Positions 7,510-47,079 of a DNA stretch of 47,400 nt are shown here, piece after piece. The translations under genes were made by a program, and so were the position numbers. This DNA is from a virus (taxonomy: Duplodnaviria; Heunggongvirae; Uroviricota; Caudoviricetes): positions 64,001-111,400 of IMG/VR virus record IMGVR_UViG_3300023238_000006. The stretch is one strand, 5' to 3'. The notes below the pieces were generated by a model that worked only from the letters and a program-made list of their open reading frames with translations, had not been told where the DNA came from and searched no databases. Position 1 is the first letter of the stretch. Each line of letters starts with the position of its first letter.

Positions 7510-10500
7510 TTAACCAAAAGCCTTATTAATATTAGTAATCATCTGTGGCTCTATGATATCACCAATAATCTTACTAAACCCTGGGGAATATACCCACTTA
7601 TCAATAGGCCTAGCAAACACTGATACTTCACCAATGTCATCAGGGTTATACCCTGAGACCATTTCAAACATCTCCTGCCCCAGTATAGCTAGCCCAAATC
7701 TTAAAGGCTTACCTTTAATTAGATCTTGGATACCTAGTTGGATTCTAATAGCGTATTTACTAAAGGCTACTAAGCCCATATCATTCATATACTGTAGAAT
7801 CTTACTATCAGGCTTAGAGTAGTTAACATAGGCATCTCTAACTCGTATTATCATATCAGCAGCTAGCTGTGCCTCTTGGTTAGCAGTCATAGGTCTGTCA
7901 TTAACTGTTTGGTAAATCTGCTTCTCTTTCTCTATACCCAGTGTGTACTGTGCATATCTAGCCACAAAGTCACTATAAGCTGTCATAGTTGTAACCAACT
8001 TAAACAGACTTGTTTTTTCAGACACAAATGTCCAGTTACCTATATCTTTTAATAACTGCGGGGCACCTTCTGTTTTATCACTAATGTACCTAGATATCTT
8101 GCTATTACTCTTAACATCAGACATATTTACATCTTCTATTATGTGTTGGTATAATCCTTCATCTATAAGAGGCTTAATAGCACTCTTATTAATGTTACCC
8201 TCCAGCTCCAACTTCTTCCTCTGTAGCACCTTGTCATTGGGATTGATTGCTAGCTTAGGTATAAGCTTAGCTAGTGCATCAGTATCTGCTAAGTAGTCTC
8301 TTAATAATGCTACACCTTCTAATTGTCGCTTAGCAACAGCTAGTGGGCTTAACCCGTATTGAAATGAGTACATAATATTACTAATCATATTACCCATAAT
8401 AACAGGTAGTGTTCTAATAATAACATCCACTTTAAATATCTTAACAATCTCCTTCCAGGCATCTTCCAGCATTCTAATAGCCTTCTTTAGATGCTTAGTC
8501 ATTTGGTGGCCAGGTAGTATGTTAGCTAACGATGCGTCCCTAACCCCAAAGATATCTAACAGCATATCTCTTCGCACCTTAAATATGTTCTTACCAAATA
8601 TACGCTTTAACTTAGACCTCTTAGTCTCAGACAATCCTGCGTACTTATCATCCCCTATTATCTTCATCATCAAATCAGTACCTAACTCGAACTTATCAGT
8701 ACCCTCGTTGTACATAACATTCTTCAAGTCAAACTTACTCAACTCTCCTTTAAGCTTTGCACCATCTGCACCGCCAGCGAGATCATTATTCAAACCCTTT
8801 ATCATTACATTAGCTTTACGCACTGTGTTCATAAGTTCTCTTATATTCTCAGGTAGTATACTAACCGCATCCTTAACTTCATTAACATCACTAAGTCTAC
8901 TAATATCAACATATCTATGCTGGTTCTTACCTACATTCCCAGAACTATGGGCATTCTCTATCATATCGTCCATTAATGTATCCCAGACAATACCATTCAA
9001 CTCTTTAGACTCTTCAACATCTGCCTCATGTGCCCAGCTTCTTGCTACAGCTTGTGGTGCATCCATCTCTAAGCCCATATATTCTATCTTACGTCTATAC
9101 GGCACCTGGGTCTTGTAGTCAGTTATTTCATTCTTAGCGTTAACCACAGGTACTACATTAGTACCCACCTTAGGCTCTTTGCCAGCTCTAACAGCTTCTT
9201 CATATTCTAAACCTAAGTCTGCGGCTCTTTTAATCTGTGCTTGCACAACATCGTACGTAGCACTATCCATCCCACGCTTTAAGGCATCCTGCCATAAGCT
9301 CATACCAGGCTCTCTATCCCCTGTGTAGCGTAGAGAAGCTCTATTCATAGGCTGCTGTGATAACTGATGGTTTACATACAGTCCTAGCTTCATATCAGCA
9401 CTATCTCCATAGCCTAGCCCTAATGAACTTACTTTATCCTTAGTAAGCTTATACCCCTTTAACTGCATACGTCGCTTAGTTCCGGCATCAGTCTTTGCTA
9501 TCTCGAGGCCTTTACCACTATCATAAGTTTCTCTATGGTAGTTCTTCATAAGGTTGTTGGATTCCTCAGGATTGACTCCTAGTATATAGGCTCTAAATCC
9601 TGATTGTGCTTCTGCTATAAACTTCATACCATCATAGTTTGTACCTACAAGTCTTGCTATAGTGTGCTGTGTTGCCACAGGTATTGTTTTAGTTGCATAT
9701 AGGGATGTTAGTAGGTCTACGTCTGTTATTAAGTCTGCGCTAGGTTTAGTAGTCTTCATTACATGTGATACTATTGCTGTAGCATTTTTACGTTGTACCA
9801 CAGTACTATTACCAGTCATCATCAGATCTGCTAGTCCTTTTGCTTGTGCCAGCATGTATCTGCTATCACTATCTGATAACTTTTCTGATAACCTTACCTC
9901 AACACCTGCTATAGCTTTGTCCAATATTGCCATATTATTGTAGATACTCTTTAACTCATCCTTGCTAAAAGCTTTAAGCATTGTAGAATTGTCAGCGAGC
10001 ATTGCTGAGCCGTATAGGGCCTTCTTCTCTTCTTTACGCAACTTCCTGCCAAAAGCTTCATTCATAACACCTGCTATATTAGCTGCTTCACTTTCTCTCT
10101 TAGTGTCTATCTGCTGTGCTGCTAGTATTAACTTCTGTATCTTGTTACCATACTTGTCTGCATGTTTGACATGGCGTAGTATTGACTGTATAAATCCTTC
10201 CTCTCTCATCCCTAACATTGCCAAAGTACCCTGCATCATAGGTGTACCCTTTTCACTAGCTAGTACGAAGTGTATAGCTCTAACTTTGTCTATAACCGTT
10301 AATTTCTTCTTCCCTGCTAACTTATTTAGTATGTACTCCTGGTTCTTACCCTCTAGCCCGTCTATCCAACCTTTCCATCTCTCTTCAGCTCTATCTATTT
10401 GTCTACCAGCCTTGGCTCTTAATGTCTGATCATTAATCCTAGCTGCCTTATGATTAAGAGAGCCTATATCACTAACTAGTTTCATCAGTAGTTTATCACC

Positions 10501-11649
10501 ACTAATCGTCTTAACATCTTTTCTAAAGGTGCCCATAACTGCATCTACAAGCATCATTACAGATGCCAGTAGACTGTCACCTAGTGTTACTATCTTCTTC
10601 TTCTCTTTTAGCTTTATAGTCTTTAACTTATTAAATACCTTCTCATTAGACAACGCCATAGCTAAGAATTCTTCAAGGCCATTCTCACTAGTCATATAAG
10701 CTAGTCTGCCCTCAGCTACCATCCTCTCTGCATCCTCATTCATAATAGAGTCACCCATCAAGTCATCCACTGTAAGTATGTCTAAAGCCTTACTACGTAG
10801 TTGTGTGAGAAGTCTTATTTCTTTAGTTAAGGCTATCTTGTTAGCATTTAGCCCATAGTGTGTTGCACCATGGATTAACTCATGCACAAAAATCTCTAAC
10901 ATACTCATATCAGTGCCTAAAGACCTTACGTCCCTACCGCTTTTTAAATATATACCTTTATCATCTTTGAACTCAATGAAACCACCATTAGAGTCTGCCT
11001 TATCATTCAAGTATATATTCATCTCTTGCATAGGCTTCTTAAGTCTACCAACAACATGGTTAAATACCATTAATAGATGCTTTGTATGAGACTCACTAGT
11101 CCCAATATTATCAATACTCTGGAGGGTATCTACCAACTTTTCAAGGGCAGCTACATTGCTAATCTCACTAGCCTTTATAACTACTTTACCTCTATCAGCC
11201 TTAGAGTTAACACCTGGTTGGTTACCTTCATTATCAGGCCTAGCACCTAATCTATCTGTCACACTATATTGTGCATCCATATTATCCATTACAATAGCAT
11301 GGGCGCCCATTAGGTAAGTCTTAACACCATTAGGGTACTTAACATTATAAGCTGCTCTACCATTAGCATCGATATAGCCATCCACTATAGTTAGCTTCAC
11401 ACCGGCAGCAGTAGTTGGATTGTTAGCCGCTGTATTCATCTTAGCAATAGTGCTAGCTGGTATTGTTGTAAACTGCTTCTCATATTTCTTAGTTATGTTT
11501 TTAAGGCGTACTTCATTAGTTAAATTAGCCTCTAAGTCATTTATATATTTAGAGGCTGCTTCAATATTACCGCCATTAGCTTCTAGTTCTAATAGGCTCT
11601 TCTTCTCATTAGCTATTGCTTCTTTACGTTGTTCTAAGGTACATACCAT
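7510..11649 (-). CDS. N4-like virion RNA polymerase C-terminal domain, encoded as a separate 1379-aa protein
   Basis: FVHELIHGAT...EEFLAMALSN and C-terminal AYSDFVAR...YVNY...YMNDMGLVAFSKYAIRIQ resemble the N4-type vRNAP C-terminal domain. Own AAGGA RBS. Single Cys, at residue 3. Confidence 0.75.
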   Translation of the reverse strand: MVCTLEQRKEAIANEKKSLLELEANGGNIEAASKYINDLEANLTNEVRLKNITKKYEKQFTTIPASTIAKMNTAANNPTTAAGVKLTIVDGYIDANGRAAYNVKYPNGVKTYLMGAHAIVMDNMDAQYSVTDRLGARPDNEGNQPGVNSKADRGKVVIKASEISNVAALEKLVDTLQSIDNIGTSESHTKHLLMVFNHVVGRLKKPMQEMNIYLNDKADSNGGFIEFKDDKGIYLKSGRDVRSLGTDMSMLEIFVHELIHGATHYGLNANKIALTKEIRLLTQLRSKALDILTVDDLMGDSIMNEDAERMVAEGRLAYMTSENGLEEFLAMALSNEKVFNKLKTIKLKEKKKIVTLGDSLLASVMMLVDAVMGTFRKDVKTISGDKLLMKLVSDIGSLNHKAARINDQTLRAKAGRQIDRAEERWKGWIDGLEGKNQEYILNKLAGKKKLTVIDKVRAIHFVLASEKGTPMMQGTLAMLGMREEGFIQSILRHVKHADKYGNKIQKLILAAQQIDTKRESEAANIAGVMNEAFGRKLRKEEKKALYGSAMLADNSTMLKAFSKDELKSIYNNMAILDKAIAGVEVRLSEKLSDSDSRYMLAQAKGLADLMMTGNSTVVQRKNATAIVSHVMKTTKPSADLITDVDLLTSLYATKTIPVATQHTIARLVGTNYDGMKFIAEAQSGFRAYILGVNPEESNNLMKNYHRETYDSGKGLEIAKTDAGTKRRMQLKGYKLTKDKVSSLGLGYGDSADMKLGLYVNHQLSQQPMNRASLRYTGDREPGMSLWQDALKRGMDSATYDVVQAQIKRAADLGLEYEEAVRAGKEPKVGTNVVPVVNAKNEITDYKTQVPYRRKIEYMGLEMDAPQAVARSWAHEADVEESKELNGIVWDTLMDDMIENAHSSGNVGKNQHRYVDISRLSDVNEVKDAVSILPENIRELMNTVRKANVMIKGLNNDLAGGADGAKLKGELSKFDLKNVMYNEGTDKFELGTDLMMKIIGDDKYAGLSETKRSKLKRIFGKNIFKVRRDMLLDIFGVRDASLANILPGHQMTKHLKKAIRMLEDAWKEIVKIFKVDVIIRTLPVIMGNMISNIMYSFQYGLSPLAVAKRQLEGVALLRDYLADTDALAKLIPKLAINPNDKVLQRKKLELEGNINKSAIKPLIDEGLYQHIIEDVNMSDVKSNSKISRYISDKTEGAPQLLKDIGNWTFVSEKTSLFKLVTTMTAYSDFVARYAQYTLGIEKEKQIYQTVNDRPMTANQEAQLAADMIIRVRDAYVNYSKPDSKILQYMNDMGLVAFSKYAIRIQLGIQDLIKGKPLRFGLAILGQEMFEMVSGYNPDDIGEVSVFARPIDKWVYSPGFSKIIGDIIEPQMITNINKAFG

Positions 11650-11662
11650 GTATTTCCTTTTT

Positions 11663-14600
11663 TTATTTACAGATGTCGGACTTTACTATAGTATCATCCA
11701 TAGCGCCTCTCTGGTTAGTATCTGTAATTATATCAGAATCATCATTATAAAGCGAATCTATATCAAAACCACTCATATCTATATCATCAAACGATGTTAC
11801 ATCTTTACCTAGTAGATCATTAGGGGTTTTAGCAGTAATGGGTTTAACTGTGTCATCACTTTTAGGAGTAGTAACTGGCTCTGCAGCAACATTAGCCCCG
11901 CCTGTAAGTAATAATTCTTTACCACGATACTTCGCTCCATGCTTTTTGTCAATAACAAATTGTTCAGCATTAAACATGTATGTTGCAAATTCAGCTCGAT
12001 CCTTTTGATTAACTTCATTCAACTCTGTTATAGACTGTAATGTAACTTGTGGAGATGCATAATCTTTCTCAACATCTTCTCTACTCTTATTAAACCTCTC
12101 CATCTCATTAACAACCTGGACCTCTTGCACATCATCCAGGATACCTGGGTACTGCGCCATAGCGGCTGTTAGTACACGCTCTAACCCGTTTCTAGCTGAT
12201 GAGATCTGAGACCATTCAGTATCCATATTAGTAGCTATAAAGTCTTGGTTAGCAGATGTTACAACATCACTCTGATTAACCCCTAACACGTATGCATCAA
12301 ATATCTGCAGTGCATTATGTTTAAGTGTAGTCATAGCTGTCCCTAGTCCATCAGTGAATTGTGTATACAACACCACCCCCTTAGCACTTGGACCAATTAA
12401 CTCTCTACGCTTACCCCTAACATACCTACCTTCTTTTCCTTTACGATAAATATGTGCATCACCATAAATGTTCTCTGCTGCCATTGCAGACTTAGTATCA
12501 TACAATGCAATACCATCTTCATACCCAACACTGCCAGGGCCTACAACTACAGGTGTAATCCCTTCAGCCTCTAACTCCGCTAATATCTCTAAATGTACCT
12601 CATTTGAAGGTGCACCACCTATACCACGTGTTGCAAGCTTTCTATCATACACAGCTTTGAATATATCAAACATACTACCAGTAGCCTCAATGATTGCAGT
12701 GTTCATAGCTTTTAAGCCTTCGAACTCTTTAGTCATCTCTTCCTGGATGGTATCACCATACACACCGCGAACTAATCCTCTAAAGCTCTCTAGTAGGTTT
12801 GTCTTACCACCACCATTATTAACGGTTATAGCTTTGTACGGTTTGCTCTTTAAATCAGTTCTAAACTTAGTTATAGCTGCATCACTCATTTCAATACCAA
12901 GAGCTGCTATAAGTGCATGCGCCTCAAGAGTGTCTTCATTCATAAGCTTGCTCATAATATCATCTATCAACTCAGCTGACAGGCCATTACTCATAGACTT
13001 AAACCCTGCTGCATAACCAAATGTCATAAATGCTGGCTTCATAAGATCTCTAGCAAAATCTACAAGGTCCCCATCTTCATCACGCATTGCAGGCATAAGG
13101 TCTGTAAGTGCCTTAGCCTTAGTTTTCATAACCTCTAAATCTGTAGAACCCCATCTATATACTCTAGCTTGCAGTATATACCCTGGAAGTTCATTCTTAT
13201 ATTTAGCATCTTCTATTGCAATCCTAGTTAATAGCTTGGACTCCATAGTAGCACCTACAGGGAACACACCTTCACCAAGAGTAAGATATGCATCTACTAT
13301 CCCTCCATCAGCTCCATTCTGTATATTAGTCACCATATCATTGGCTTCTTCTTGTGAAGAAAAAGTAAATCCAACTCTGTTCAACCATTCTAAAGTCTTT
13401 GGAGTGATACCTTCTCCTAGCTTATCAGTAGTTAGGAACTGTAGTAACTTATGGGCAAATCCATTAGTTAGTCCATCAATTTCAACAGTCATTACCGTAT
13501 CAAAAGGACTGCCATTAGCTTCTATGTATTTAGCACCCTCAACTAGGGCTGTAACGGTATGGGCCAACTCTTTTATTTTAATAGTAATATCACCTATAGT
13601 TGCAGAAGTCTCTCCAGCAGCTATAGCTTTTTCAAGGATAGCTAACCCCTCAGTGGTTAGGACTTTATCAGCAAACTCAACACTCTCCTTAGTGGTACGC
13701 TTGTCTATCTTAAAGCCTGTTGCTTGTGCCACACCCAACTTAAACATAACCATACTCATAGGGTCTTTAGTTACATCTACGGTACCTCGTTGCCCTTCAG
13801 TAGTAACTAAGTACCTGTGCAGCTTAATAGATTGAGGGTTAAATCCACCTTCAGCGTCTATCATCTGGCGACCAGACTTAGACATAAACCATCTAAAGAA
13901 TACTCCATCAGTCATTTCACCACTTCTATAAGCTTCTTGCATAGCTACTACATTTTCTATGTCCATCTCTATTTGACGATTCTTACCTATTATACTTATA
14001 GACTGCTCTTTAGTAAGTGTATCAGCTGTTTCATCAGCAGTGCCTAGTATCTTTCTAAGGCTCTCAGGTGTGATAGCTAATATTTTATCTATTACTTCAG
14101 TAGTAGGTTGCCATGATATCTGCTCACTCTTTATAATAGCATTGGTCTGAGTCTCTGGAACAGATGTTGTGCTTTCATTACGTTTCTTAATATCCTCAGG
14201 AGACTGAGTACGCCCCTCTAGGTGTACTTTAGTCTTACTACGAGGCTCAGCATTTAGCCTAATATCAATGTCCTTAACATGGTCTCTAAGTGCTGTCTTA
14301 GCCTCTAGTGATTCAAACATACCAGTTACCTTGTATGTATATGTAATCTCTTTAGAAGTCTCAACAGTAGTATCCACAAAGTCTGGATCATTTACCATAC
14401 CTTTAAATGGGCTAACATATGGGACTTCAACTTCTCTAATCATATTAGTATTCTGAGCATGGACTACAGCCGCATATCCTAGTGCTAGTGTTATCTTCTC
14501 GTAGAACTCTGTTGAGTCCTCCACAACATTCCCTTCCACATCCTTAGTTATAAGAGGTTTGATACCTAGCTTTTTCATGATATCTTTACCAACTGTGTCG

Positions 14601-17251
14601 ACTATAAACGTTGCAGGTACACCACCCTCTATAGCAGCTTCACTAAGCTCCATCCAGTTTTCTTCTGTCCTACCATACATCGCTTGTAGATCTTTAGCTG
14701 ATAACCTAGTAAGAGGGTAAAAGTTCTCGGCTATATAACTATTCATAGCTGCCTTCATTGCCATCGCTACATTAACATTTAAAGTACCATCACTATTAGT
14801 TAACACCATCAAATAAGGGTGACTGGCTTTGTCAGCATCAGAGACCTTGCCCATAAGAGGGTTACCTTTTGAATCAGACTTCTCTACACCATTAGCTGTA
14901 AGGTTTGCAGCTAAGAACTGTAACTCCCCTGGATTAAACATAAACTCTGTATCTTTAACGGTGTACTCTACAGCCCCTAAGTCAGAAGAAGGGTTACCAA
15001 CACTAAGTTGTGTGCCTAGTGTGAACCCTGTTCTACGAGTAGTCTTGTACCCTGGTTTACCAAGATTACCCTTATCCTCACTTTTAAAATATGCCTTGTT
15101 AGGGCTATACAGGGGACTAGTAGTACTATGCACAACAGCTAACACCTTCTTAGTCTGGGATGTACCCCTTTTAGCGTCCTGTGCTTTCTTAAGTTTCCTA
15201 GTAGTTAATCCTTTCTCAGCCAACTTGCCCAATACTTCAGACCTCTTACCCCTCCAATCAGGACCATACAGTTCTGCTGCAGCTTTTTCAGCCACATCTA
15301 TGGCATCATTAATAGCCACAACATTAGCCTGTCTAGTTGCTTGTTCATCTGTAAATGCCATCTTAGCTTTAACAGCTTTATTAAACAAGGCTTTAGCTTT
15401 AACTAACGCCTTAGTAAGAGTTACAAGTGCTGCTCCTACAAGCTTACGGTATCTACTAATAAAGCCTGCAGCAACTTCCAAAGCCTCTACGTTCTCTTTG
15501 ACTTTTCTAGCTGCTACTGTGTAGTTGTGCTTTTCACTACTATCAAATTCTATAGCTATAGCATCTTCGTTATAACCTTTTCTAGTATCTGAGCTGTTAT
15601 ACTCTTTAATTATATCTCTAACAGCTTTGTAACTTTTATCCACAGTAGCTATTACTGCGTCCCATCCTTTACTAAACTCTGCATTGTCAGCTCTAACGTT
15701 CTTACGGTCAACCTTTAGGGCTCGTATGGTATCAATAACAGCTTTAGTACCATCAAGGAACTTTGATACCCCATTAACATTCTCATCCATTGCAGCAATC
15801 TCATCAATGATATATGCTCTTCTACCTAGGAGCTTAGTTATTACTCTATCAAGGTTATCTCTTTGAGTCTTAGTTAAATCACTAGCTTTTACTACCTCAT
15901 GTACTTTTAACTGGATAGCCTTAGTTTTAGCAACAACTTGTAACTGTATATTATTAGTCTCTTTAGTAGTACCTATACTCTTACCTAGCTGTACTAGCAA
16001 CTCACTAAATGTAGCCACATCAGGTGAGAAGTTTAGGTACTCTTGAACATACGTAGAAACCGCCATCTCTCTAGGAGCTATTAGTTTCATATCTTCAGCA
16101 AGTGGGGGTGCATAAGGATTATTCTTAGTAGGCACTTCGTACTCAGCCTCCACAGGAGCCTCTACAACCTCTTCCTCAACACCTTCTACCTCTTCAACCA
16201 CTTCGTTCGTTGTAGCCTCTGTGAGGGTGTCTGACGGAGGTGTTTGCTCAGTTGGTTTATATTCAGTTGTTGCATCTTCTACAACTACTTCCTCAGCCTT
16301 CGTAGAAGCCTTAACAACCTCTCTAGCCACTGTAGTATCAGTTGTAGGAGTTTGTGGCTCTACAGCCTTCTCAGATACCTTCTCGCTCTTGTTAACTTCA
16401 TCTAATATCTTCAAGTTGGAGTCTAATAGAATATCGAACAATGTGCCTAATTCTTTGCCTTTAAACCCTAGCATCTGAAGTACAGTATTTAGAAGTATTT
16501 GTGCCATATCGTATAACCTATCCACAGGGTTAGTGGGTTTGACACTCATAAGTGCCAACATTACCTCAGGATTACTTAAAGCTTCTGCAAGGAATTCATG
16601 CACATCACCCTGCCAATATGTATCAGCTATATCAAACTTATCTTTATTTTCTAGCATATACTTGTAGATCATACTAATTCTTCTAGTAGCAGGTTCATTA
16701 GGGTTAATAATCATATACTCAGAGGACCCTGAATGAATTAACTCATGGAGTAGAAAGTGTGAGCCTTTAGTCTTACGTATAATGTCAAACACTCTTTCTA
16801 CTTCCACATCTAGCAAATCAGTGGTATCTGTAGCATTTAGAACTTTCAAGGCCTTGGCTACTGGTAGCATAGTGGTTAACTGGCTATACATATCCTTAGA
16901 TAGCTCTGCCTTTATTTCCACTTTGTTAACGTAGCTGGCTATAGTAATAGCTCCGCCAGGTATAAGTGTTTCACCAGCAGCAAACTTATTTATACCTATT
17001 CTTATCTGGGACAATGCAAATGCTTTATCCTTCGAGATAGAAGGATTAACAATACTAAATATTGCTCTACCAAGCCCTTTACCAAACATCTTTAAAGATG
17101 TGTTACTAGGTGGAGTGTTATAAGTGTTTGTTACAAACTCCCCAAACTCCTCCTCCAGTGTTGCACCATCCTGTATTATTTTATTAATAGCTCTACTAGC
17201 TTGAGGGTACTTACTTAGCTCTTTAATAGCTTCTTTTAGTTGGCATGGCAT
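11663..17251 (-). CDS. N4-like virion RNA polymerase, catalytic piece (1862 aa)
   Basis: Single-subunit RNAP motifs: A VEIDGLTNG (about 13460-13485), B RDLMKPAFMTFGY (about 13014-13052), C LQIFDAY (about 12290-12310), plus FNPQSIKLHRYLV. Position matches the N4 gp50 locus. Confidence 0.9.
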   Translation of the reverse strand: MPCQLKEAIKELSKYPQASRAINKIIQDGATLEEEFGEFVTNTYNTPPSNTSLKMFGKGLGRAIFSIVNPSISKDKAFALSQIRIGINKFAAGETLIPGGAITIASYVNKVEIKAELSKDMYSQLTTMLPVAKALKVLNATDTTDLLDVEVERVFDIIRKTKGSHFLLHELIHSGSSEYMIINPNEPATRRISMIYKYMLENKDKFDIADTYWQGDVHEFLAEALSNPEVMLALMSVKPTNPVDRLYDMAQILLNTVLQMLGFKGKELGTLFDILLDSNLKILDEVNKSEKVSEKAVEPQTPTTDTTVAREVVKASTKAEEVVVEDATTEYKPTEQTPPSDTLTEATTNEVVEEVEGVEEEVVEAPVEAEYEVPTKNNPYAPPLAEDMKLIAPREMAVSTYVQEYLNFSPDVATFSELLVQLGKSIGTTKETNNIQLQVVAKTKAIQLKVHEVVKASDLTKTQRDNLDRVITKLLGRRAYIIDEIAAMDENVNGVSKFLDGTKAVIDTIRALKVDRKNVRADNAEFSKGWDAVIATVDKSYKAVRDIIKEYNSSDTRKGYNEDAIAIEFDSSEKHNYTVAARKVKENVEALEVAAGFISRYRKLVGAALVTLTKALVKAKALFNKAVKAKMAFTDEQATRQANVVAINDAIDVAEKAAAELYGPDWRGKRSEVLGKLAEKGLTTRKLKKAQDAKRGTSQTKKVLAVVHSTTSPLYSPNKAYFKSEDKGNLGKPGYKTTRRTGFTLGTQLSVGNPSSDLGAVEYTVKDTEFMFNPGELQFLAANLTANGVEKSDSKGNPLMGKVSDADKASHPYLMVLTNSDGTLNVNVAMAMKAAMNSYIAENFYPLTRLSAKDLQAMYGRTEENWMELSEAAIEGGVPATFIVDTVGKDIMKKLGIKPLITKDVEGNVVEDSTEFYEKITLALGYAAVVHAQNTNMIREVEVPYVSPFKGMVNDPDFVDTTVETSKEITYTYKVTGMFESLEAKTALRDHVKDIDIRLNAEPRSKTKVHLEGRTQSPEDIKKRNESTTSVPETQTNAIIKSEQISWQPTTEVIDKILAITPESLRKILGTADETADTLTKEQSISIIGKNRQIEMDIENVVAMQEAYRSGEMTDGVFFRWFMSKSGRQMIDAEGGFNPQSIKLHRYLVTTEGQRGTVDVTKDPMSMVMFKLGVAQATGFKIDKRTTKESVEFADKVLTTEGLAILEKAIAAGETSATIGDITIKIKELAHTVTALVEGAKYIEANGSPFDTVMTVEIDGLTNGFAHKLLQFLTTDKLGEGITPKTLEWLNRVGFTFSSQEEANDMVTNIQNGADGGIVDAYLTLGEGVFPVGATMESKLLTRIAIEDAKYKNELPGYILQARVYRWGSTDLEVMKTKAKALTDLMPAMRDEDGDLVDFARDLMKPAFMTFGYAAGFKSMSNGLSAELIDDIMSKLMNEDTLEAHALIAALGIEMSDAAITKFRTDLKSKPYKAITVNNGGGKTNLLESFRGLVRGVYGDTIQEEMTKEFEGLKAMNTAIIEATGSMFDIFKAVYDRKLATRGIGGAPSNEVHLEILAELEAEGITPVVVGPGSVGYEDGIALYDTKSAMAAENIYGDAHIYRKGKEGRYVRGKRRELIGPSAKGVVLYTQFTDGLGTAMTTLKHNALQIFDAYVLGVNQSDVVTSANQDFIATNMDTEWSQISSARNGLERVLTAAMAQYPGILDDVQEVQVVNEMERFNKSREDVEKDYASPQVTLQSITELNEVNQKDRAEFATYMFNAEQFVIDKKHGAKYRGKELLLTGGANVAAEPVTTPKSDDTVKPITAKTPNDLLGKDVTSFDDIDMSGFDIDSLYNDDSDIITDTNQRGAMDDTIVKSDICK

Positions 17252-17865
17252 TATGCAGCTCCTTTAAGGTTACATCGTTCGTTCTCAACTAGTGGTATTA
17301 ACCAAGCTGATACATTTATAGAAGAGGCGGTAAGATGGTTAGCTCCTTTAGAAGTTAGTGCATTAACAACATCTAACCCCCCATCTTTCTTGATTATAGC
17401 TAGCTCTGTCTCAACCATAACAGGATTTAAGGCCTCAAGTTTAGAGTAGTTACGCTTAAAGTTATATCTTATCAAAATGTACTCAGCTTCTATATTTGAA
17501 TATCTATCGGGGATATCTATATCATTACATATATCAAAATGTTTACAGCTGTATGGATGGTATCTCTCCATTATTAAATTACGCATAAACTCTAAGTATG
17601 CCTCTTCACATAATGAATCAGCCTTAGTAGCAGGTATTTGTGTGCTACCTGACAATCCCATATACTCTATATAAGTTTCTGTTAGATGCTGTACATCTTT
17701 AAACAGTATACTGGTATCTAGCCCTGAGTAAATCTTATGGTAGTTAACACCACCTTCAGTAATAAGGCCTACAGGGTTCTCTCTTAACCCTCCTTGACCA
17801 TCTTGCTTACAATAGTACATAAGGTACTTACTAAACTCTTCACCAGTATTTGTGGTATTACACAT
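17251..17865 (-). CDS. Unknown 204-aa Cys-containing protein inside the split vRNAP locus
   Basis: Coupled by TAATG overlaps on both sides; Cys at 2, 19, 86, 107, 113 and 198. Confidence 0.75.
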   Translation of the reverse strand: MCNTTNTGEEFSKYLMYYCKQDGQGGLRENPVGLITEGGVNYHKIYSGLDTSILFKDVQHLTETYIEYMGLSGSTQIPATKADSLCEEAYLEFMRNLIMERYHPYSCKHFDICNDIDIPDRYSNIEAEYILIRYNFKRNYSKLEALNPVMVETELAIIKKDGGLDVVNALTSKGANHLTASSINVSAWLIPLVENERCNLKGAA

Positions 17866-20800
17866 TAACAGTCCTTTAAATCTATACCTGCCTCTTTAAG
17901 TTTCTTCATAAGTGAAGGTGCAGAGGTTATATATTGAAGCAGTGCTTCTCTAGTTCCGACATTATACTTAGATTCTGGATCTTGTGCAACGCTGCGAATC
18001 TCTAGGGCTCTATCTATAGGCTTGGCAGTATTACCCAGCCCCTTTAGACCAGCACCGTCAGTCTCATCTAATCCTTCTAGTATATCTGCCTTAGGTTTCT
18101 TAGTAGGGCTATTCTTAGGAGACTTCTTAGTAGCCGCTGGTAACGTCTCTACACTACTATCTGTAATACCCTTTACAGCTACCGTAACAGACTTTTGATT
18201 AGCCTCATCAATCATGAACTCACGCTCCGATGGCTCTAGCTCTACACCCGTAACTTGCTTCTGTGCAATTATAGTAACTATAGCTGGTGCACCTTTGGTA
18301 GTATCACCAGTTACTTCCTCAGCTGCTCCTGAAGCCTTTATATTCAACTTAGGAATACTTACCGGCTCAGCCTCTGTCTGTGCCTCCTGGGTACCTTGCT
18401 GTGATTCTCCTGACACTTCTGATCGTATGTTATTCTTATTAATCAACTGACTAGCTTTAATCATAGCTTGTACTTCTCTACCAGTAGCAGCTATCATTAC
18501 GTTAGTCTTAGAACCTTCTTTCCAAGTGGATGTGAGCCCCTCGGATGCCGCCTTATTCCAAGGCAAATCCTGAGCGTAATCAATCAATGACCCTTCTGAA
18601 TTTACATCAAAATTACCAGCATCTCTTACAAACTCAGAGTTAACTCTCATATACTCTTTAGAAGCATACTGGATACTATGTGATCCACCCGCTATAGATA
18701 ACTGAGCAACAGTCTTACCAGTTGCTGCCATAACTTGTGCAAGCTCATTGTCAAAGCTATTAGTTTTAGCTAAGTTAAACTTACCAGTACTACTAGCCTT
18801 CACTAGTGCCTTCCATACTACCTCTTCTGATAATCCTGTAGTGGATACTAATGTATTAATCTTATTAGCAATGGGCTCTATTGCAGCAGTTCTACCAGCA
18901 ATTAGCTTCTGGTGCTTCTCTTCCTGTAAGGATGTGAAAGCTATTAACTTATCTGACGAAGCCTTACGCTCTATAGATCCTTTAGAACTGCCCAGTGCAT
19001 CCCTGAAATAACTCATAAAGCCTTTCTTATCAGCACTCATACCAGATGTTACAATCTGCTCTCTAGTTATATCCATACCACCCATAGTCTTTATATGTGC
19101 TCTAATCTCTTTAAGACTTTTAACTATTCTAGGAATGTCTTTATCAATCACCTCACCACTTTCATCTAAGTTATTGGCAATAAGGTTATCTGTAAAAGTA
19201 TCAGCTTGTGTATCATTATCTAAAGCTATTCTAGAGAAAGCTACACGCATAGCTTCTTCAGCTTCAGGTGTGGCACCCAGCCTAGAACTATCCCCAGTCT
19301 CTATAGCCTTATTAGCTAAGTTAGTTTGGTGTATCCTAGTAGCGTTCATAAAGTCATCTTGCCACTCTTGCGTCTTAGTTGCTAATACCTCTCTAGGAGA
19401 TACTACAGCACCACCTCTAGCCTTAGATACTTCTGCAACTTCCTGTAGTAGTTCGTTCTTCTGTGCTTCGAATATAGCAGCAGCATCTTCGTCAGATGTT
19501 GCGTTGTTTATGGTATCTGTGAAAGTTGTTTGTTTAATTGGTGTGGTTGTGTTAGCCGCTATATCTTCTTGTTCTGCTTTGAGGGCTGATAGCTTAGCTG
19601 ATAATTGGTCTGTAGCGGATACAACAGACCCGTTGTTAATAATAGCTGAAGCAGCGTCTTTAGCAATACTAGTACCTGAACCAGCCCCTGCCCCCATAAG
19701 CCCGGCAATGGCTAAGTCTTGTATAGCATCTTCTGACGTTATCTCATCTTGTTTACTGGTACCAAGTTTAGCACCAACAAGTTGTGATCCATCCTGGATT
19801 ATCTCTTCTAGCCCTTCCTCAAAACCTTTAGTTACAGCATTAGCCCCTACTACTAAGAAAGACTTAGTAACCGTGTTCCATGCAGCTCTGTCCATAAGTT
19901 GTGCAGCCTGTAAAACTAACTCTTTAGTTGGTTTTAAACCAGCCATACCACCAGTGAACTTATTAACTAGCGCATACACAGTACCCGCTGCCAACCCTAT
20001 ACCATAATCAGAAGCCTCTAGCTCAGTAGTGCCTTTTATAGCAGCTCTCTCTGCAAGAACCTCATTCATAGCTTTACCAGCTAATGCTGCAACACCTAGA
20101 GGGTTTGATGCAGCTAGTATCTCTCCAGAACTGCCTGCTAGTACCTCAGGTGCTTGTACAATAGCTTCCAATGCTACAAGGACCTTATCCTGCCAAGATG
20201 CATTGTCATCAAACAATATCTTCTTAGCTTTCTTAGTATAAGCCTCAACACGTTTAGGATCGTAGCCATAATACTTAGCAGTCTTAAATTTATCAAACCC
20301 TACGAAGTCTCCATCTTTAGTCACTAGATCCTCAAACATTGTACCTTTAAGTTTACGTTGCAGCTTCTTATTGTAGTAGTCTTCATCCTTACCTTCGATA
20401 CCTTTAGCAGCTTCTTTACCCAGCCTAATACCAGCATCTACTATCCAGTCACCAGTACCTGCAGCGAAGGCTCCAACACCTTTCTGTGCAGCATCTACTA
20501 AGTTACCTAAGTAGCTATCAGTGTCTTCACCACCGCCAGACAATAGCATATCCAGCTTTGCATTCCGTACAGGTGAGTAACCTCCATTATACCTAGCATT
20601 ATCTGTAACAGCTTGTTGCCTATTACTAAACATAACCTCTTCTCTACCATCCCCAGTAGTACCATCTTCTTTTGTGTACAAACCACCCATAGTCTCTAAT
20701 AGACCAAGATCTCTACCGTAGTTAGATATGTGTGTCTTACCATCTTTAGTTTTAAAAGTACGGCTATCGTTGTTAGTTAGGAGTGTTTCCTGTAGAAGGG

Positions 20801-21287
20801 ATGGTAAGGGGTCTTGTGTGTAGGCCTTAGCTTCTGCTTTCTGTGCATCACCTGCTGCAAATACATCACTATAGTCTACTTGTCTGCCCATCTCTGCTGA
20901 TAGTTTAACAACTTGCTCATCCATCTTCTTAACCATATTAGGGTTCTTAATCCATTCAGAGTAGTTAGGCTTAGAGGACTCATAAGTATCAACGCCAAGG
21001 GTACGTGTACTGTCTTCACGCCCTTCAACACCATATGTATCACCATCTATGGAGTATATTGAGTTACTTGAAATAGCACTAGTAACAGGTGCATCAAACC
21101 CTGGCTGCGATAATCCCGCATTAAGACCTAGCCTGCCTTCTTTAGAGGTAATACGCTCTTGAAGTCTTGACGCTTTATTATCTGAAAGTGTAGGGGATTG
21201 AGGTGTGGTAGGTAATATGGCAGCACCATATATAATTTTGTTTAACTCATCTAGTCGGGTATCAAAGTTGTTGTATTGTCCTAGCAT
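17865..21287 (-). CDS. Probable vRNAP N-terminal (ejection) domain, encoded as a separate 1140-aa protein
   Basis: Lies between the gp51-like gene and the polymerase piece. Gly/Ala-rich segments (KGFEEGLEEIIQDG...LAIAGLMGAGAGSG) are typical of N4-type vRNAP N-termini and ejection proteins. Single Cys, as the last residue. Confidence 0.7.
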   Translation of the reverse strand: MLGQYNNFDTRLDELNKIIYGAAILPTTPQSPTLSDNKASRLQERITSKEGRLGLNAGLSQPGFDAPVTSAISSNSIYSIDGDTYGVEGREDSTRTLGVDTYESSKPNYSEWIKNPNMVKKMDEQVVKLSAEMGRQVDYSDVFAAGDAQKAEAKAYTQDPLPSLLQETLLTNNDSRTFKTKDGKTHISNYGRDLGLLETMGGLYTKEDGTTGDGREEVMFSNRQQAVTDNARYNGGYSPVRNAKLDMLLSGGGEDTDSYLGNLVDAAQKGVGAFAAGTGDWIVDAGIRLGKEAAKGIEGKDEDYYNKKLQRKLKGTMFEDLVTKDGDFVGFDKFKTAKYYGYDPKRVEAYTKKAKKILFDDNASWQDKVLVALEAIVQAPEVLAGSSGEILAASNPLGVAALAGKAMNEVLAERAAIKGTTELEASDYGIGLAAGTVYALVNKFTGGMAGLKPTKELVLQAAQLMDRAAWNTVTKSFLVVGANAVTKGFEEGLEEIIQDGSQLVGAKLGTSKQDEITSEDAIQDLAIAGLMGAGAGSGTSIAKDAASAIINNGSVVSATDQLSAKLSALKAEQEDIAANTTTPIKQTTFTDTINNATSDEDAAAIFEAQKNELLQEVAEVSKARGGAVVSPREVLATKTQEWQDDFMNATRIHQTNLANKAIETGDSSRLGATPEAEEAMRVAFSRIALDNDTQADTFTDNLIANNLDESGEVIDKDIPRIVKSLKEIRAHIKTMGGMDITREQIVTSGMSADKKGFMSYFRDALGSSKGSIERKASSDKLIAFTSLQEEKHQKLIAGRTAAIEPIANKINTLVSTTGLSEEVVWKALVKASSTGKFNLAKTNSFDNELAQVMAATGKTVAQLSIAGGSHSIQYASKEYMRVNSEFVRDAGNFDVNSEGSLIDYAQDLPWNKAASEGLTSTWKEGSKTNVMIAATGREVQAMIKASQLINKNNIRSEVSGESQQGTQEAQTEAEPVSIPKLNIKASGAAEEVTGDTTKGAPAIVTIIAQKQVTGVELEPSEREFMIDEANQKSVTVAVKGITDSSVETLPAATKKSPKNSPTKKPKADILEGLDETDGAGLKGLGNTAKPIDRALEIRSVAQDPESKYNVGTREALLQYITSAPSLMKKLKEAGIDLKDC

Positions 21288-21337: not shown

Positions 21338-23854
21338 CTATTTCAAGTATTCTCTAATAGCTTCACGCATAGCAGGGAATCTAGTTGATATCTGCTCAAG
21401 GCGTAGCAAGTCCTGAGGACTCTTAGTACCTTTGGTTAAAATTACAGCAACCTCGTCTGACGCTTTCTTTATAAAGTCGGCCTTCATATTACCACTAGAC
21501 TTAGATAAAGTATTAGCAGAGCCTTTAACAAATACGCCAGAATTACTACCGGCAGTTCTTACTCTGTCAAATAGCTTGTCAGCTAATTTACTACTAACTT
21601 TACTACCAACCGTGCTTGCCCCTGGAATTATTGGACCTAACAACCTATTCTCAATAGCTTGAGAATCAGTTGATGGTACTCCTCGTTCACTAGGAAGTGA
21701 TGAGGGTTTGAAGTTATTACGGAAGCCCAGTAACCCCATAAGATTTTGCCCAGATTTATTACCTTGGTTTAAAGTATTAATAGCAGTACTACTAAATGCT
21801 GCAACCTCATTACCAGGGGTACCTGCAGCATTATACATCTTAGTATCTGAAAACTTAGGGCCAAACTTACTCATCCATGCAGTTGCTAAGTCAGCATCAG
21901 AAGTAGAGCTACCGGCCTTACCAAGGTTGTTACGAATGTTTCTACTAATATTAGCGTCTGTAATAGGAGTACCGTCATTGATAGAATCAATAATAGCAAC
22001 CATACCAATAGCACCTTGTTGGTGTGCCCCATACATATTAATCTCTGTAAGAGGTATACCAGAGTTAGTAAGTGACCTAGCCTTCTCTGCAGTCAGCTCA
22101 GCGTATATAGCATCCTGGTTAGCAGGGGTTTTCCAACTACCCTTTAACCCAAGGCGTTTGGAGTACTCTTCGCCATACTTAGGCATTATCTGGTATCGTC
22201 CGTAAGCATTAGAACTCTTGCCTTGTGTAGTGTACGAAAGTGCCGTATCATTAACAGACTCAGTTATTGCTAACTTAGCTTCATAACTACCTGCTTTTGC
22301 AGGTACTTTACTTGCTAGATACTTAGTATCCTCTGGAGTTACTGTGTACTTGTCAGCAGCTTGTTCTCGCCACTTACCACTCTCTGCATCCTTACGTAAC
22401 GAGTCAACGGTTATAGTTGAGCCATCAGAATATTTAGGGGCAACATCGTTAGTTGTTCCTACATTACCTCTAGGAGCAAGGTTGTTACCTTTCTCTCCAT
22501 ACTTGGCTAAGAACCCTTGCAACCCTGTAGCGTTAGGGTCACTCTTCTTAAACTTCTCTTCTAGGGCTAGATTTGCAGCGGTAGCTTGGGCGTTAGCTGT
22601 GTTAACAGCTGCTGCATACTTACCATCATACTTAGCAACAGTGTAGCCACCAGTAGACTGCTCTCTGCTGAGGGCCTTATCAAACTCCCCAGCAGCATAT
22701 TGTTTCTTTAACCAAACGTTAGTTGCATCGATATCAACAATTCTAGTATCGAACATTTTACCATCACTGCCTTTAGAGAACTTACTCAAAGCATAGTCCA
22801 TAATAGAAGCAGGCACTCCTTCATCCAATCTCTCACTAACCCAGTCTTTTAGATCAGTACCACTTTCTCCTCCAGACCCTGTTGTGCTAATTGTCCACTT
22901 AGGGTACTTAACTCTTGTGTCATCTAATAATATAGTTTTATTCTTCATGCTATTAGAGCCGTAAGTCTTATCATTAGCCTTAGAAGATCCGGCTCTTAAC
23001 TGTTCAGAAGTTTTAGCAGCCACATCTAAAGAGTTCTTTAATGTATCTGCAATCCCTTTCTGCCCTGACTTATATAATGCAGCCTCTGTAGCTGTTAAAG
23101 GCTTAGGGGCATACTGGGCGGCCATCGCAGCAGCTTCTGTGCTAGCCTCTGTAGCCGTGTACTTACCAGAAGCCATAAGAGATTTTGTTAATCTACTCTC
23201 GTAGCCAGAATCTGTAGTTCCGTATTGAAGACCGTTAGTACTAGCGGCTTTAATACGATTGTACTCAGCATCCATAGGCCCTCTCTCAGAAAGTCTTGCT
23301 TGCTCTCTAGCAGCAACTAGTTCTGGAGTATTATTAAGGTTTGAAGCTGCTAAGTCTTCTTTCTCAGAAGCAGCCCAAGTGTTTGCTGCCTGTACTTCTT
23401 GCAACTCTGCAGGGGAATTACCCATATTAGCTACTAGTGTGTTAAACTGCTCATCCTCTATTGAAGTGGTTGTACCATCAAACTTATTGCCATCGTATTT
23501 GTAGTTTATCTTATCAGATATTCGGTTGTAGACATCTTGCCCTTCCTGCCCTGAACCAACATTCTTAGGGACTGCTGCTGCTGACTGTAATGCTGCTAAT
23601 TTATCTTGCTTAAACTGCCAATCTGACTGTTGTCGCTTAGCCTCGGCGTCAGCTCTAGCATTAACAATACCTCGCTGTGCCAGCGTAGCCGCTTGCTCAG
23701 CGGTATACCTAGTATCCAACACCCCTTGTCTAACCAAGGCATCAGCAGCTGCTTGTCTATCTGACATCTGCTTAGTAAACCCACTAAGGGCATCCTGTAG
23801 GCCTCTAGTAGGATCAACAACATTACCTGTACTGAAATTACTTCTTAATGCCAT
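21338..23854 (-). CDS. N4 gp51-like ejection protein with a lysozyme/transglycosylase-like domain
   Basis: LAITES...SSNAYGRYQIM...TPANQD...YGAHQQG lysozyme-superfamily motifs; no Cys; synteny with N4 gp51. Confidence 0.75.
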   Translation of the reverse strand: MALRSNFSTGNVVDPTRGLQDALSGFTKQMSDRQAAADALVRQGVLDTRYTAEQAATLAQRGIVNARADAEAKRQQSDWQFKQDKLAALQSAAAVPKNVGSGQEGQDVYNRISDKINYKYDGNKFDGTTTSIEDEQFNTLVANMGNSPAELQEVQAANTWAASEKEDLAASNLNNTPELVAAREQARLSERGPMDAEYNRIKAASTNGLQYGTTDSGYESRLTKSLMASGKYTATEASTEAAAMAAQYAPKPLTATEAALYKSGQKGIADTLKNSLDVAAKTSEQLRAGSSKANDKTYGSNSMKNKTILLDDTRVKYPKWTISTTGSGGESGTDLKDWVSERLDEGVPASIMDYALSKFSKGSDGKMFDTRIVDIDATNVWLKKQYAAGEFDKALSREQSTGGYTVAKYDGKYAAAVNTANAQATAANLALEEKFKKSDPNATGLQGFLAKYGEKGNNLAPRGNVGTTNDVAPKYSDGSTITVDSLRKDAESGKWREQAADKYTVTPEDTKYLASKVPAKAGSYEAKLAITESVNDTALSYTTQGKSSNAYGRYQIMPKYGEEYSKRLGLKGSWKTPANQDAIYAELTAEKARSLTNSGIPLTEINMYGAHQQGAIGMVAIIDSINDGTPITDANISRNIRNNLGKAGSSTSDADLATAWMSKFGPKFSDTKMYNAAGTPGNEVAAFSSTAINTLNQGNKSGQNLMGLLGFRNNFKPSSLPSERGVPSTDSQAIENRLLGPIIPGASTVGSKVSSKLADKLFDRVRTAGSNSGVFVKGSANTLSKSSGNMKADFIKKASDEVAVILTKGTKSPQDLLRLEQISTRFPAMREAIREYLK

Positions 23855-23863
23855 AATATATCC

Positions 23864-24322
23864 TTACTTCCCACCAAATGTAGCGCCTATGTCTTTCTGG
23901 CGACCTTTAGCTTGGTCTAGCACAAACTTGTTCTGCTCTAGCTGTTGTCCCATAAGCTCACGTTGCTTATTAGCAGTCTTCTGATTCTCTAGGTAGCTCA
24001 TTACACCAAGTCCTAGTTGCCCAACACCAAGGGCTGTACCGCCTAGTCCTGTCATGCCCCAGTCGGTCTTAGCTCCTTCCTGTTGTTTAGCAAATGCAGC
24101 GTCAGCAACAGCTACATCAGAAGTAGATGAATCTGGTGTAATATTATATCCAGCCATAAAATCAGACTTAGCTTGCGTGTTATTATATAAATCCATGTAG
24201 TCGGACCGGTTTCCAGCGCCAAACATATCCCCCCATGACTTCTGAGGGGCATTAAGGGCAGGCGCATTTAACCCTTCCAAGCTGCGGAACTTATCTATAG
24301 GTGATAGATTTATTTCTGACAT
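23864..24322 (-). CDS. N4 gp52-like small ejection protein
   Basis: 152 aa with a Gly-rich hydrophobic segment GLGGTALGVGQLGLGVMSYL; synteny. Confidence 0.65.
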   Translation of the reverse strand: MSEINLSPIDKFRSLEGLNAPALNAPQKSWGDMFGAGNRSDYMDLYNNTQAKSDFMAGYNITPDSSTSDVAVADAAFAKQQEGAKTDWGMTGLGGTALGVGQLGLGVMSYLENQKTANKQRELMGQQLEQNKFVLDQAKGRQKDIGATFGGK

Positions 24323-45600: not shown

Positions 45601-47079
45601 TCAACAAGAAGGTCCGGAGCCGACAGCCACAGTAGATACAGCCGAATCACTACCCACAGCCAGACTCAGCGGCCCAGCACCCAAACCAGTAGCCGAAGTA
45701 CCACCCACCACAGCAATTCTATTACCAACTGCTTGATAGTAATAATCCGTAGTACCTACAGCACTTGTACCTCCTGTTACATCAGTAGGAAAGAATCCCT
45801 TACTACTATTAGATAACTTTCTAGTATACCCATTAGCTGCGCCCATTGTTACACCAGCACTTACGTAATCACCTGTAAACACATCACTAGCAAATGTTGC
45901 CGGATTCTGACTAACAAATGGTACACGCTCCTGTATATTAATTCCATCAATAAACCCCCATATATTCCCAAAGAAGTTTTCACACCCTCTGTAGCTCATA
46001 AATGACAAGTCAGCGGATGCAGTATCAGCACTGCCAGCATATGTATAATTACCAGTCTTGTTTCCTAAGTTATTACTAAGTCCATTGATACCAATTAAAC
46101 TGCCACCTACCCACGCACCTCCAGTCAATGCAGTTCTGCCTTGCCCAAGTGCACTTTGTATATTCATCGTACCATACTCTATTATACATAACAACGTAAG
46201 CGCCTCATACAGCAGCCAATCTATCTGGTGCCATCCAGTGCCATTAGCCGCAGCTTCTGTCCTACCAGTAGCTATGGTAAATGACACACTAGGGTAAGTT
46301 CCACTTACACTCAGGAGCTTACCACCAGACCTAGTACCTTTGTATGCTGGGAAGTACCTAAAGTCTTTCTCTACTCCACCAATTACAAATGCAGGGTCAA
46401 GTATATACCCAGTCTCTGCTGTCAAACTAATACTATGCTCATGCACAACTCCAACAGCAGTATTATAGCTATACTTTCTGTAGAACTTTGGTATCTCTAC
46501 CATTACATTACCATCAGCACCTGTCAGTATAGAGGGTGTACCATCAGCCTTCTTGGTTGAATCAAGTGGGTCTAAGTAGTAGTTTACACTTCTATCAGCG
46601 TTTAGTACACATCTACGTATAAGTGATTGAATTGCAGTATACCCACCAGTGCCAGTTCTCTTATAGGTATCATTAGTTTCATCCCAGTTTAACCCATATG
46701 AGCCAGTATAAAAATCGCTACCTAGTTTTATAGCTGTGTTAACGTAAGTCTCTGATGCCAGCCCAAGTACGGCAGCAGCTACATTACTATCACTCTCTGT
46801 CTTAGTATAAGTAGTACTCTGGGTAGCCTTCAAAGCTAAAGCAGTATCCACTTCACCCTCACTATACATCTTCTTAGTAGTAGTACCAGCAGTTGGTACT
46901 TCTGCGTACACTCCACCAGTTACTACCATCTCTCTAGACGTATCAGTGTTTAACCACTTATCACCATCAAATAGCTTAGTAATGTCTGGCTTGTTAGCCT
47001 CAGTAGTTATTAAGTACTGTCCTTTTGTCTTAGCTATCTTCTCTGCTTTTAACGCTGCACCTAGTGAAATTATATCCAT
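45601..47079 (-). CDS. Tail fibre 1 / receptor-binding protein, DGR target (CLec fold)
   Basis: GNVMVEIPKFY...GWHQIDW...IIEYGTMNIQ...SYRGCENFFGNIWGFIDG; the VR occupies its C-terminus. Confidence 0.88.
   Translation of the reverse strand: MDIISLGAALKAEKIAKTKGQYLITTEANKPDITKLFDGDKWLNTDTSREMVVTGGVYAEVPTAGTTTKKMYSEGEVDTALALKATQSTTYTKTESDSNVAAAVLGLASETYVNTAIKLGSDFYTGSYGLNWDETNDTYKRTGTGGYTAIQSLIRRCVLNADRSVNYYLDPLDSTKKADGTPSILTGADGNVMVEIPKFYRKYSYNTAVGVVHEHSISLTAETGYILDPAFVIGGVEKDFRYFPAYKGTRSGGKLLSVSGTYPSVSFTIATGRTEAAANGTGWHQIDWLLYEALTLLCIIEYGTMNIQSALGQGRTALTGGAWVGGSLIGINGLSNNLGNKTGNYTYAGSADTASADLSFMSYRGCENFFGNIWGFIDGINIQERVPFVSQNPATFASDVFTGDYVSAGVTMGAANGYTRKLSNSSKGFFPTDVTGGTSAVGTTDYYYQAVGNRIAVVGGTSATGLGAGPLSLAVGSDSAVSTVAVGSGPSC
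45613..45708 (-). repeat. DGR variable repeat (VR) at the 3' end of tail fibre 1
   Basis: A-to-N derivative of TR 45430-45525. Confidence 0.93.

Follow-up and report, generated by a model that had tools for sequence, protein, structure and literature searches.

The virion RNA polymerase (vRNAP) of coliphage N4, gp50, and its homolog in Pseudomonas phage DEV, gp71, are each made as one chain of ~3,400–3,500 amino acids (aa) that contains no cysteine (Cys). N4 gp50 consists of three globular units on flexible linkers and is probably unfolded through a tail of ~35 Å, and the model for N4 and DEV is one of beads on a string that unfold during ejection (PMC13434306). Avoidance of Cys is documented for the family, and in the ejection proteins of schitoviruses it has been read as reflecting the need to cross the periplasm (PMC11445570). 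How a 3,500-residue polymerase gets through a ~35 Å channel is a question yet to be answered in N4-like as well as crAss-like phages (PMC13434306, PMC10172136). Here we describe the vRNAP locus in 47,400 nucleotides (nt) of DNA from an uncultured N4-like marine phage of the Caudoviricetes (IMGVR_UViG_3300023238_000006, positions 64,001–111,400; this whole stretch is called the window below). The enzyme is encoded there as separate pieces that carry Cys at the ends facing one another, an arrangement which recurs in relatives and suggests that the pieces are probably joined head to tail by disulfides into a single chain for ejection.

Whereas N4 and DEV have one Cys-free chain, the window encodes three or four polypeptides (4,381 to 4,585 aa) with paired terminal Cys and an inserted orphan open reading frame (ORF). 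The four consecutive ORFs of 1140, 204, 1862 and 1379 aa reported for this locus in the original prediction were recovered with exactly the same coordinates, all on the minus strand, and are referred to here as pieces A, B, C and D (Table 1). The stop and start codons overlap by 1 nt (TAATG) at both A|B and B|C, a 13-nt gap separates C from D, and every downstream ORF has its own ATG with a Shine-Dalgarno sequence (AAAGGA or AAGGAG) 6–8 nt ahead of it. In place of the one giant polypeptide of ~3,500 aa that is a trait of the N4 family, the locus has four separately initiated ORFs, each preceded by a Shine-Dalgarno sequence.

Together, A, C and D contain four Cys in 4,381 aa, at the positions read in the original prediction (C1140 in A, C3 and C1861 in C, and C3 in D). 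Each lies within 3 residues of an end that faces a neighboring piece, and none is present at the outer ends of the chain, which are the N-terminus of A and the C-terminus of D. Given four Cys, the chance of such a placement is ~5e-12 by our own arithmetic from the window alone. Like members of the N4 vRNAP family, A, C and D have no Cys in their interiors, and gp50 indeed has none in its 3,500 aa, as the original prediction had stated. Complete absence of Cys, another trait of that family, is not seen at this locus, where A, C and D carry the four terminal Cys and B carries six. The earlier description of Cys restricted to junction-facing ends thus holds for A, C and D but fails for B: C2 and C198 of this piece are present as described, but four further internal Cys had been overlooked (positions 2, 19, 86, 107, 113 and 198 in all). 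At 2.9% of residues, compared with 1.33% in ordinary ORFs of the same loci, B is not depleted in Cys.

Sequence comparisons identify the pieces as the parts of an N4-type vRNAP, with a T7-like polymerase domain in C, a C-terminal encapsidation domain in D and an N-terminal domain (NTD) in A. Residues 814–1715 of C match positions 1016–1894 of PHROG 2206 (N4-type vRNAP; E 5e-62), and C also shows a weak Pfam match to PF21867 and a BLASTP match to residues 1315–1561 of gp50 (E 4e-10). D matches PHROG 2206 (E 9e-122) and, by BLASTP, residues 3132–3450 of gp50 (E 1e-15); its residue 1 maps to approximately residue 2000 of gp50. Piece A has no Pfam or PHROG match and no detectable similarity to the NTD of N4 itself, and a word-index search with A returned one relative only. 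By phmmer, residues 255–915 of A are collinear with residues 258–904 of a 2422-aa piece of locus L006 in which the NTD and the RNA polymerase (RNAP) domain are fused (E 5e-53), and A is likewise collinear with the fused NTD-RNAP pieces of L066 and L007 and with a 1164-aa piece of L070. Because A is collinear with the N-terminal 250–900 residues of these fused relatives, it represents a detached NTD. The points at which the chain is split coincide with the flexible linkers between the globular units of gp50.

Zincin-like HExxH motifs were observed at window positions 16731–16745 (residues 169–173 of C) and 10870–10884 (residues 256–260 of D), the second of which aligns with the motif at residue 2228 of gp50. 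In C, in D, in most C-terminal pieces and in many of the modules inserted in relatives, the motif follows the N-terminal Cys by 166–345 residues. The N-terminal region of C (residues 49–285) resembles the matching region of pieces of the C-terminal domain (CTD) type (31% identity to P0036), a likeness which suggests that a cassette of junction plus zincin-like domain may have been duplicated.

A set of 24 split loci, the window included, was compiled from 65 IMG/VR loci and several assemblies; it comprises 87,802 aa and 36 junctions. The original prediction had proposed as a check that terminal Cys should be conserved at the junctions of relatives and absent from their interiors, and this proved to be the case. 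All 36 junctions have exactly one Cys on each side, ≤10 residues from the end, and these together account for 72 of the 79 Cys in the set; none is found at outer ends, and 7 are internal, 4 of these in B. Unsplit genes are nearly free of Cys, as 26 unsplit vRNAP ORFs (~93,000 aa) contain two in total and gp50, gp51 and gp52 of N4 contain none. Relatives in which A and C are fused (2186–2622 aa) have no Cys at the corresponding place, and the fused RNAP-CTD protein P0015 has none. Among the rare internal Cys are residues 215 and 220 of the visible part of L002:3-2750, the closest relative, and residue 1086 of L008:9545-13591. In L015:488-13126, the unsplit sister of the split clade, Cys are present at 2420 and 3559.

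The position of the Cys is conserved in each class of piece. Eleven of 14 homologs of D recovered by protein search (22–55% identity) have exactly one Cys, at residue 3–6; P0013 has the terminal Cys and an extra one at 1078, and none was called in P0010 or P0015. Eighteen proteins of 2186–2531 aa that combine the NTD with the polymerase, and are related to C, carry a single Cys each as the last or penultimate residue. When 18 C-type pieces are aligned, C1861 alone is invariant; in the alignment of 10 D-type pieces, M1 and C3 do not vary. At 31 junctions, 0–7 residues separate the upstream Cys from the stop, and the downstream Cys is one of residues 2–6; the gaps between the genes range from −11 to +26 nt and include all three relative frames, and each downstream ORF has an ATG and a Shine-Dalgarno sequence.

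The A|B|C layout was seen in the window genome only, with a comparable NTD|RNAP split in L070, while the C|D junction recurs in independent assemblies. Indeed, the RNAP|CTD split to which C|D belongs was found with proper starts in dozens of independent assemblies and in four isolate genomes. In a FastTree phylogeny of the CTD, the clade with the RNAP|CTD split forms a single group (support 94) with branches of ~1 substitution per site, indicating one old event that has been retained. The NTD|RNAP splits of the window, L070, L067 and the L075/L049 group fall in different parts of the tree, and a Cys pair is present in each.

The rule that a cut chain bears a Cys at both facing ends also predicted hidden cases, namely the partner of the L075 polymerase, the proteins of phage crAss001 and the start of P0010. 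The L075 polymerase (2320 aa, L075:10001-16963) has only C6 and no adjacent partner; its presumed partner, an 841-aa protein with only C840, is encoded 2.1 kb upstream (L075:5339-7864), and the interval holds four small Cys-free ORFs, one of which has a Pfam Gp77 match. Since these partners are not adjacent, chain order is not simply gene order. In crAss001, gp47, encoded on the plus strand, has only C2339, while on the minus strand gp50 has C5, C1334 and C2404 and gp49 has only C5. The three are virion proteins by mass spectrometry, and the tail of this phage has resolved inter-protein disulfides (PMC10172136). The occurrence of facing Cys is therefore independent of gene order. The start of P0010 (locus L074) had been miscalled; the true start overlaps the upstream stop and reads MGC, following an upstream tail that ends ...ERCTK. 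In the DEV study, Cys near the ends of “apparently prematurely truncated” homologs of gp72 and gp51 were put down to annotation errors (PMC11445570); these homologs may be further Cys-clasped splits, in this case of a second ejection protein.

Additional ORFs are present between the polymerase and C-terminal pieces of relatives, and these carry Cys only at both ends. They include SF1 (RecD/Pif1-like) helicases, a NADAR-domain protein and proteins of unassigned family (Table 1). Locus L070 encodes a chain of five pieces (1164|1137|336|318|1307), and each of its eight Cys is terminal. Although cytoplasmic and rich in Cys as a rule, the inserted enzymes are here Cys-free save at their ends, which marks them as members of the ejected set. 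The sequences identify the helicases and the NADAR protein as candidate injected enzymes, and the latter, by analogy with known NADAR enzymes, might reverse ADP-ribosylation.

Piece B is located as such a module would be, and its ends (MC... and ...C-N-L-K-G-A-A-stop) resemble those of the modules inserted in relatives. It shows a positive coding score in its own frame and a GC content of 36%, compared with 38–42% in its neighbors. No homolog was found among 1.84 billion representatives in an exhaustive profile search, nor was there a match to Pfam or PHROG. The predicted structure has a mean predicted local distance difference test score (pLDDT) of 39, and the Atlas model is equally poor and has no feature matches. 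B may be a recent acquisition. On balance, B is rather more likely to belong to the chain as a small cargo link than to be a bystander gene. A stretch rich in His and Cys was noted around residues 103–113.

The data presented above lead us to propose a model in which interchain disulfides, formed head to tail, probably rebuild a threadable ejection chain that is taken apart by reduction in the cytoplasm. The vRNAP would be made as separate A, C and D pieces, probably with B between A and C, and each piece would lack Cys, as the ejected proteins of such phages do, save for one near each end that faces a neighbor. The pieces would first associate non-covalently and be packaged, whereupon the facing Cys would be oxidized to interchain disulfides between C1140 of A and C2 of B, C198 of B and C3 of C, and C1861 of C and C3 of D; if B is not a link, C1140 of A would pair directly with C3 of C. 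The joint would be almost linear, because both Cys lie within ~8 residues of the chain ends, and the joined pieces could act as one thread that is pulled unfolded through the narrow tail and the envelope channel, in the way suggested for the single chain of N4 gp50. Once inside the cell, where the cytoplasm is reducing, the disulfides would break, and each module would be free to act on its own. The bond, its timing, the order of the chain and the reductive release are what we infer from these sequences. A Cys pair appears only when the chain is cut and always lies close to the two new ends, although the proteins are otherwise devoid of Cys; a disulfide is therefore the simplest chemistry. The head-to-tail linkage advanced in the original prediction is thus supported by the Cys pattern of 24 loci, but its count of three bonds would hold only if B is a link, and would otherwise fall to two. 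We also slightly favor a broader reading of the pattern as a general modular device of N4-like and crAss-like phages, two groups that package different polymerases, whereby terminal Cys clasps would string separately encoded proteins together for ejection, reduction would unclip them, genes could become split, and new cargo (SF1 helicases, the NADAR protein and orphans such as B) would join by means of a Cys at each end.

Several other explanations for the terminal Cys were considered. The Cys might join neighboring pieces by means other than a disulfide, through a shared metal ion (a zinc clasp, which may include the two His of HExxH), a cysteine-switch contact with that zinc site or other thiol chemistry. 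The HExxH motif does follow the N-terminal Cys in most downstream pieces, C and D included, and a His stands beside the Cys in some upstream tails (HCKQ in AD45-P1, GCH in L004). However, neither neighbor has the motif at the junction of AD45-P1, at that of L012, at A|B, at the NTD|RNAP junction of L070 or at the RNAP|NADAR junction of L004; unsplit gp50 of N4 has the motif yet no Cys; and a single Cys per side is insufficient for a stable metal site, while the residues that adjoin it are not conserved. Linkage of this kind is unlikely. Rejected in particular was a clasp in which HExxH would complete a Zn(Cys)2(His)2 site, as several junctions lack the motif. It is also improbable that the Cys bind targets outside the chain, such as a second copy of the same piece in a homodimer or a capsid, portal or scaffold protein, or that they have a transient role in packaging. 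The pairing of Cys with Cys proposed here is deduced from sequence, N4 packages several copies of vRNAP, and its CTD is needed for encapsidation (as cited in PMC13434306), all of which would suit an outside partner. Such a partner would not require Cys solely where the gene is split, however, and the parity is perfect, in that each junction is flanked by a single Cys on either side and Cys are absent from the outer ends and from unsplit genes; moreover, the neighboring ejection proteins have no Cys with which to pair.

Two further explanations place the cause in the reading of the genes. The pieces could be fused in translation, by a hop of peptidyl-tRNA(Cys) between Cys codons as in T4 gene 60, by frameshifting or by read-through. 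The A|B junction has the classic layout for a hop, TGT-TAA-TG-TGT, in which the second TGT lies 5 nt on, in the frame of B. Matched take-off and landing codons in adjacent cistrons of one mRNA, with the take-off beside the stop, define programmed bypass and are found at A|B only. In the other two junctions of the window, the stop follows the upstream Cys at a distance of 6 codons (B|C) or 1 codon (C|D), and the pre-stop codon has no matching landing codon in the right frame. Across the 31 junctions the distance from Cys to stop (0–7 codons), the gap and the frame all vary, while the ATG and the Shine-Dalgarno sequence are always kept. A hop would also leave unexplained why the codon is always that of Cys in proteins that are otherwise Cys-free. 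Given that 2.1 kb and four ORFs separate the partner genes of L075, and that those of crAss001 lie on opposite strands, translational fusion is ruled out as the general link, and as an account of the Cys it is very improbable. Even less credible are errors of assembly or sequencing as the source of the splits, or chance or a by-product of ribosome-binding sites as the source of the Cys placement. The GenBank record of AD45-P1 does label its split a “potential frameshift”, and the Lys-Gly ahead of many C-terminal Cys corresponds to the AAAGGA Shine-Dalgarno sequence of the next gene; but the N-terminal Cys of downstream pieces cannot derive from a ribosome-binding site, the same split recurs with proper starts in the independent assemblies and isolates described above, and the figure calculated for the window speaks against chance. 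In addition, breaks that do look like errors, with an open frame, no start codon, or an intact counterpart in a relative of 99.6–100% identity, have no Cys. The comparative data thus exclude assembly error and uniform translational fusion, both of which the original prediction had named as possible objections, as general explanations. A split intein was rejected as well, since no Hint or intein domain was found (Pfam searches gave no match in A, B or D and a weak vRNAP match in C) and the 0–7 residues beyond the Cys leave no room for one.

Certain observations weigh against disulfide linkage. The support for the bond is a pattern of sequence. As the RNAP|CTD split arose once, the 24 instances represent conservation and not 24 independent origins. 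As the cytoplasm is reducing, the bond would probably hardly form before packaging, and a non-covalent route of co-packaging would be needed. The four internal Cys of B break the rule that interiors are Cys-free, as do an internal CxxxxC in L002 and one additional Cys in L008. Several of the small inserted modules share the HExxH domain with the start of the CTD and may represent one junction cassette that was duplicated. Finally, some breaks have no Cys (L020, L026, L035, L042, L054, L064 and the first break of L025). The breaks of L020, L035, L042, L054 and L064 either lie within conserved domains or have an unbroken counterpart in a nearly identical relative, as for L042, whose locus is intact in L041 (99.6–100% identity). 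In these five, the downstream frame is open across the upstream stop and has no nearby start, which marks L020, L035, L054 and L064 as frameshift lesions. L025 has an in-frame TGA at its first break, and this break, like the other five, looks like a lesion or error and not an evolved split; the start of L057 was miscalled. The locus L026:1356-13543 comprises three ORFs (867|647|2521 aa) with zero Cys and one break inside the polymerase domain, and may reflect sequencing errors in a metagenome of older date or, alternatively, a genuine split of a different type.

The surroundings of the locus resemble those of gp50 and gp71, with Cys-free ejection proteins, a portal and a major head protein. 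Just upstream of A, two Cys-free ORFs occupy the position of the N4 ejection proteins gp51 and gp52, the gene order in N4 being gp52-gp51-gp50, and the 152-aa ORF has a weak match to PHROG 2867, a virion structural protein. Farther upstream, the identifiable ORFs encode an N4-like major head protein and a portal. A search of the phage collection with the window for near-identical DNA gave no match. Elsewhere in the window (45601–47079), a 492-aa ORF on the minus strand has Cys at 157, 298, 366 and 492, the last being its final residue; this protein is not depleted in Cys, and its terminal Cys is probably unrelated to the polymerase chain.

Table 1. Pieces of the vRNAP locus, codons of the junction Cys, upstream ORFs and inserted modules of relatives (positions without a locus name are those of the window).
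Feature	Position	Strand	Description
Piece A	17865..21287	−	1140 aa; vRNAP N-terminal-domain piece; only Cys is the last residue
Piece B	17251..17865	−	204 aa; orphan ORF between A and C; six Cys
Piece C	11663..17251	−	1862 aa; HExxH at 169, T7-like RNA polymerase domain ~814–1715, acidic tail; Cys only at 3 and 1861
Piece D	7510..11649	−	1379 aa; C-terminal-domain piece (N4 equivalent is the encapsidation domain); HExxH at 256; Cys only at 3
Codon TGT, Cys1140 of A	17868..17870	−	TAA directly after, overlapping the ATG of B; sequence read
Codon for Cys2 of B	17860..17862	−	sequence read
Codon for Cys198 of B	17272..17274	−	six residues ahead of the stop
Codon for Cys3 of C	17243..17245	−	sequence read
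Codon for Cys1861 of C	11669..11671	−	penultimate residue
Codon for Cys3 of D	11641..11643	−	sequence read
Two Cys-free ORFs	21338..24322	−	838 and 152 aa; just upstream of A; position of N4 gp51/gp52 ejection proteins
SF1 (RecD/Pif1-like) helicases	L009:3370-5997; L014:4397-7429; L016:6640-9579; L017:3370-5820		816–1010 aa; Cys only at both ends
NADAR-domain protein	L004:16696-17802		368 aa; Cys only at both ends
Inserted proteins of unassigned family			654, 408, 336 and 318 aa; Cys only at both ends

The vRNAP and the ejection proteins belong to a known family, while the principle by which the pieces would be linked appears to be undescribed. As the original prediction had supposed, neither junction Cys nor a disulfide-linked ejection chain was found in the literature searched, including the structural papers on N4, DEV and crAss001. 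If the model is correct, the conserved Cys clasp would be a sign that ejection depends on an uninterrupted chain and would explain how the gene can be split without loss of function. It would also provide a simple rule by which injected enzymes, possibly with anti-defense roles, are added to the thread, and a sequence signature for injected cargo, namely a protein devoid of Cys apart from one at either end.

The closest cultured relatives are Alteromonas phages vB_AmaP_AD45-P1 to P4, which share 24% identity in the polymerase domain and are split at the same RNAP|CTD boundary. AD45-P1 encodes two pieces, not four: one of 2481 aa with only C2479 and one of 1409 aa with only C4. This Cys pair is not annotated in the record, and no mention of it was found in the literature searched. 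The RNA-polymerase-associated cargo of crAss001 (gp47, gp50 and gp49) consists, like the window pieces, of giant ejected proteins whose Cys are essentially confined to the termini that face one another. The polymerase of crAss001 is generally regarded as being of a different, non-homologous type, and this phage further differs from that of the window in its order (Crassvirales), in having the genes on opposite strands and in one internal Cys of gp50. Ejection via partial unfolding has been proposed for it (PMC10172136). Split inteins, for example split DnaE, share with the present system the products of a split gene that need to become one chain and a Cys at the junction, but they yield a peptide bond, whereas the disulfide proposed here would be reversible. 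In AB-type toxins such as diphtheria toxin and the clostridial neurotoxins, an interchain disulfide tethers the catalytic chain, which is released when this bond is reduced in the cytosol. These toxins show no homology to the vRNAP pieces; they are produced as a single chain that is nicked afterwards, the disulfide does not connect one chain end with another, and several separately encoded modules are not strung together. They nevertheless share the logic of our model, in that the disulfide keeps the parts attached to each other outside the cell and on their way through a narrow channel, until the enzyme is set free by reduction in the cytosol.

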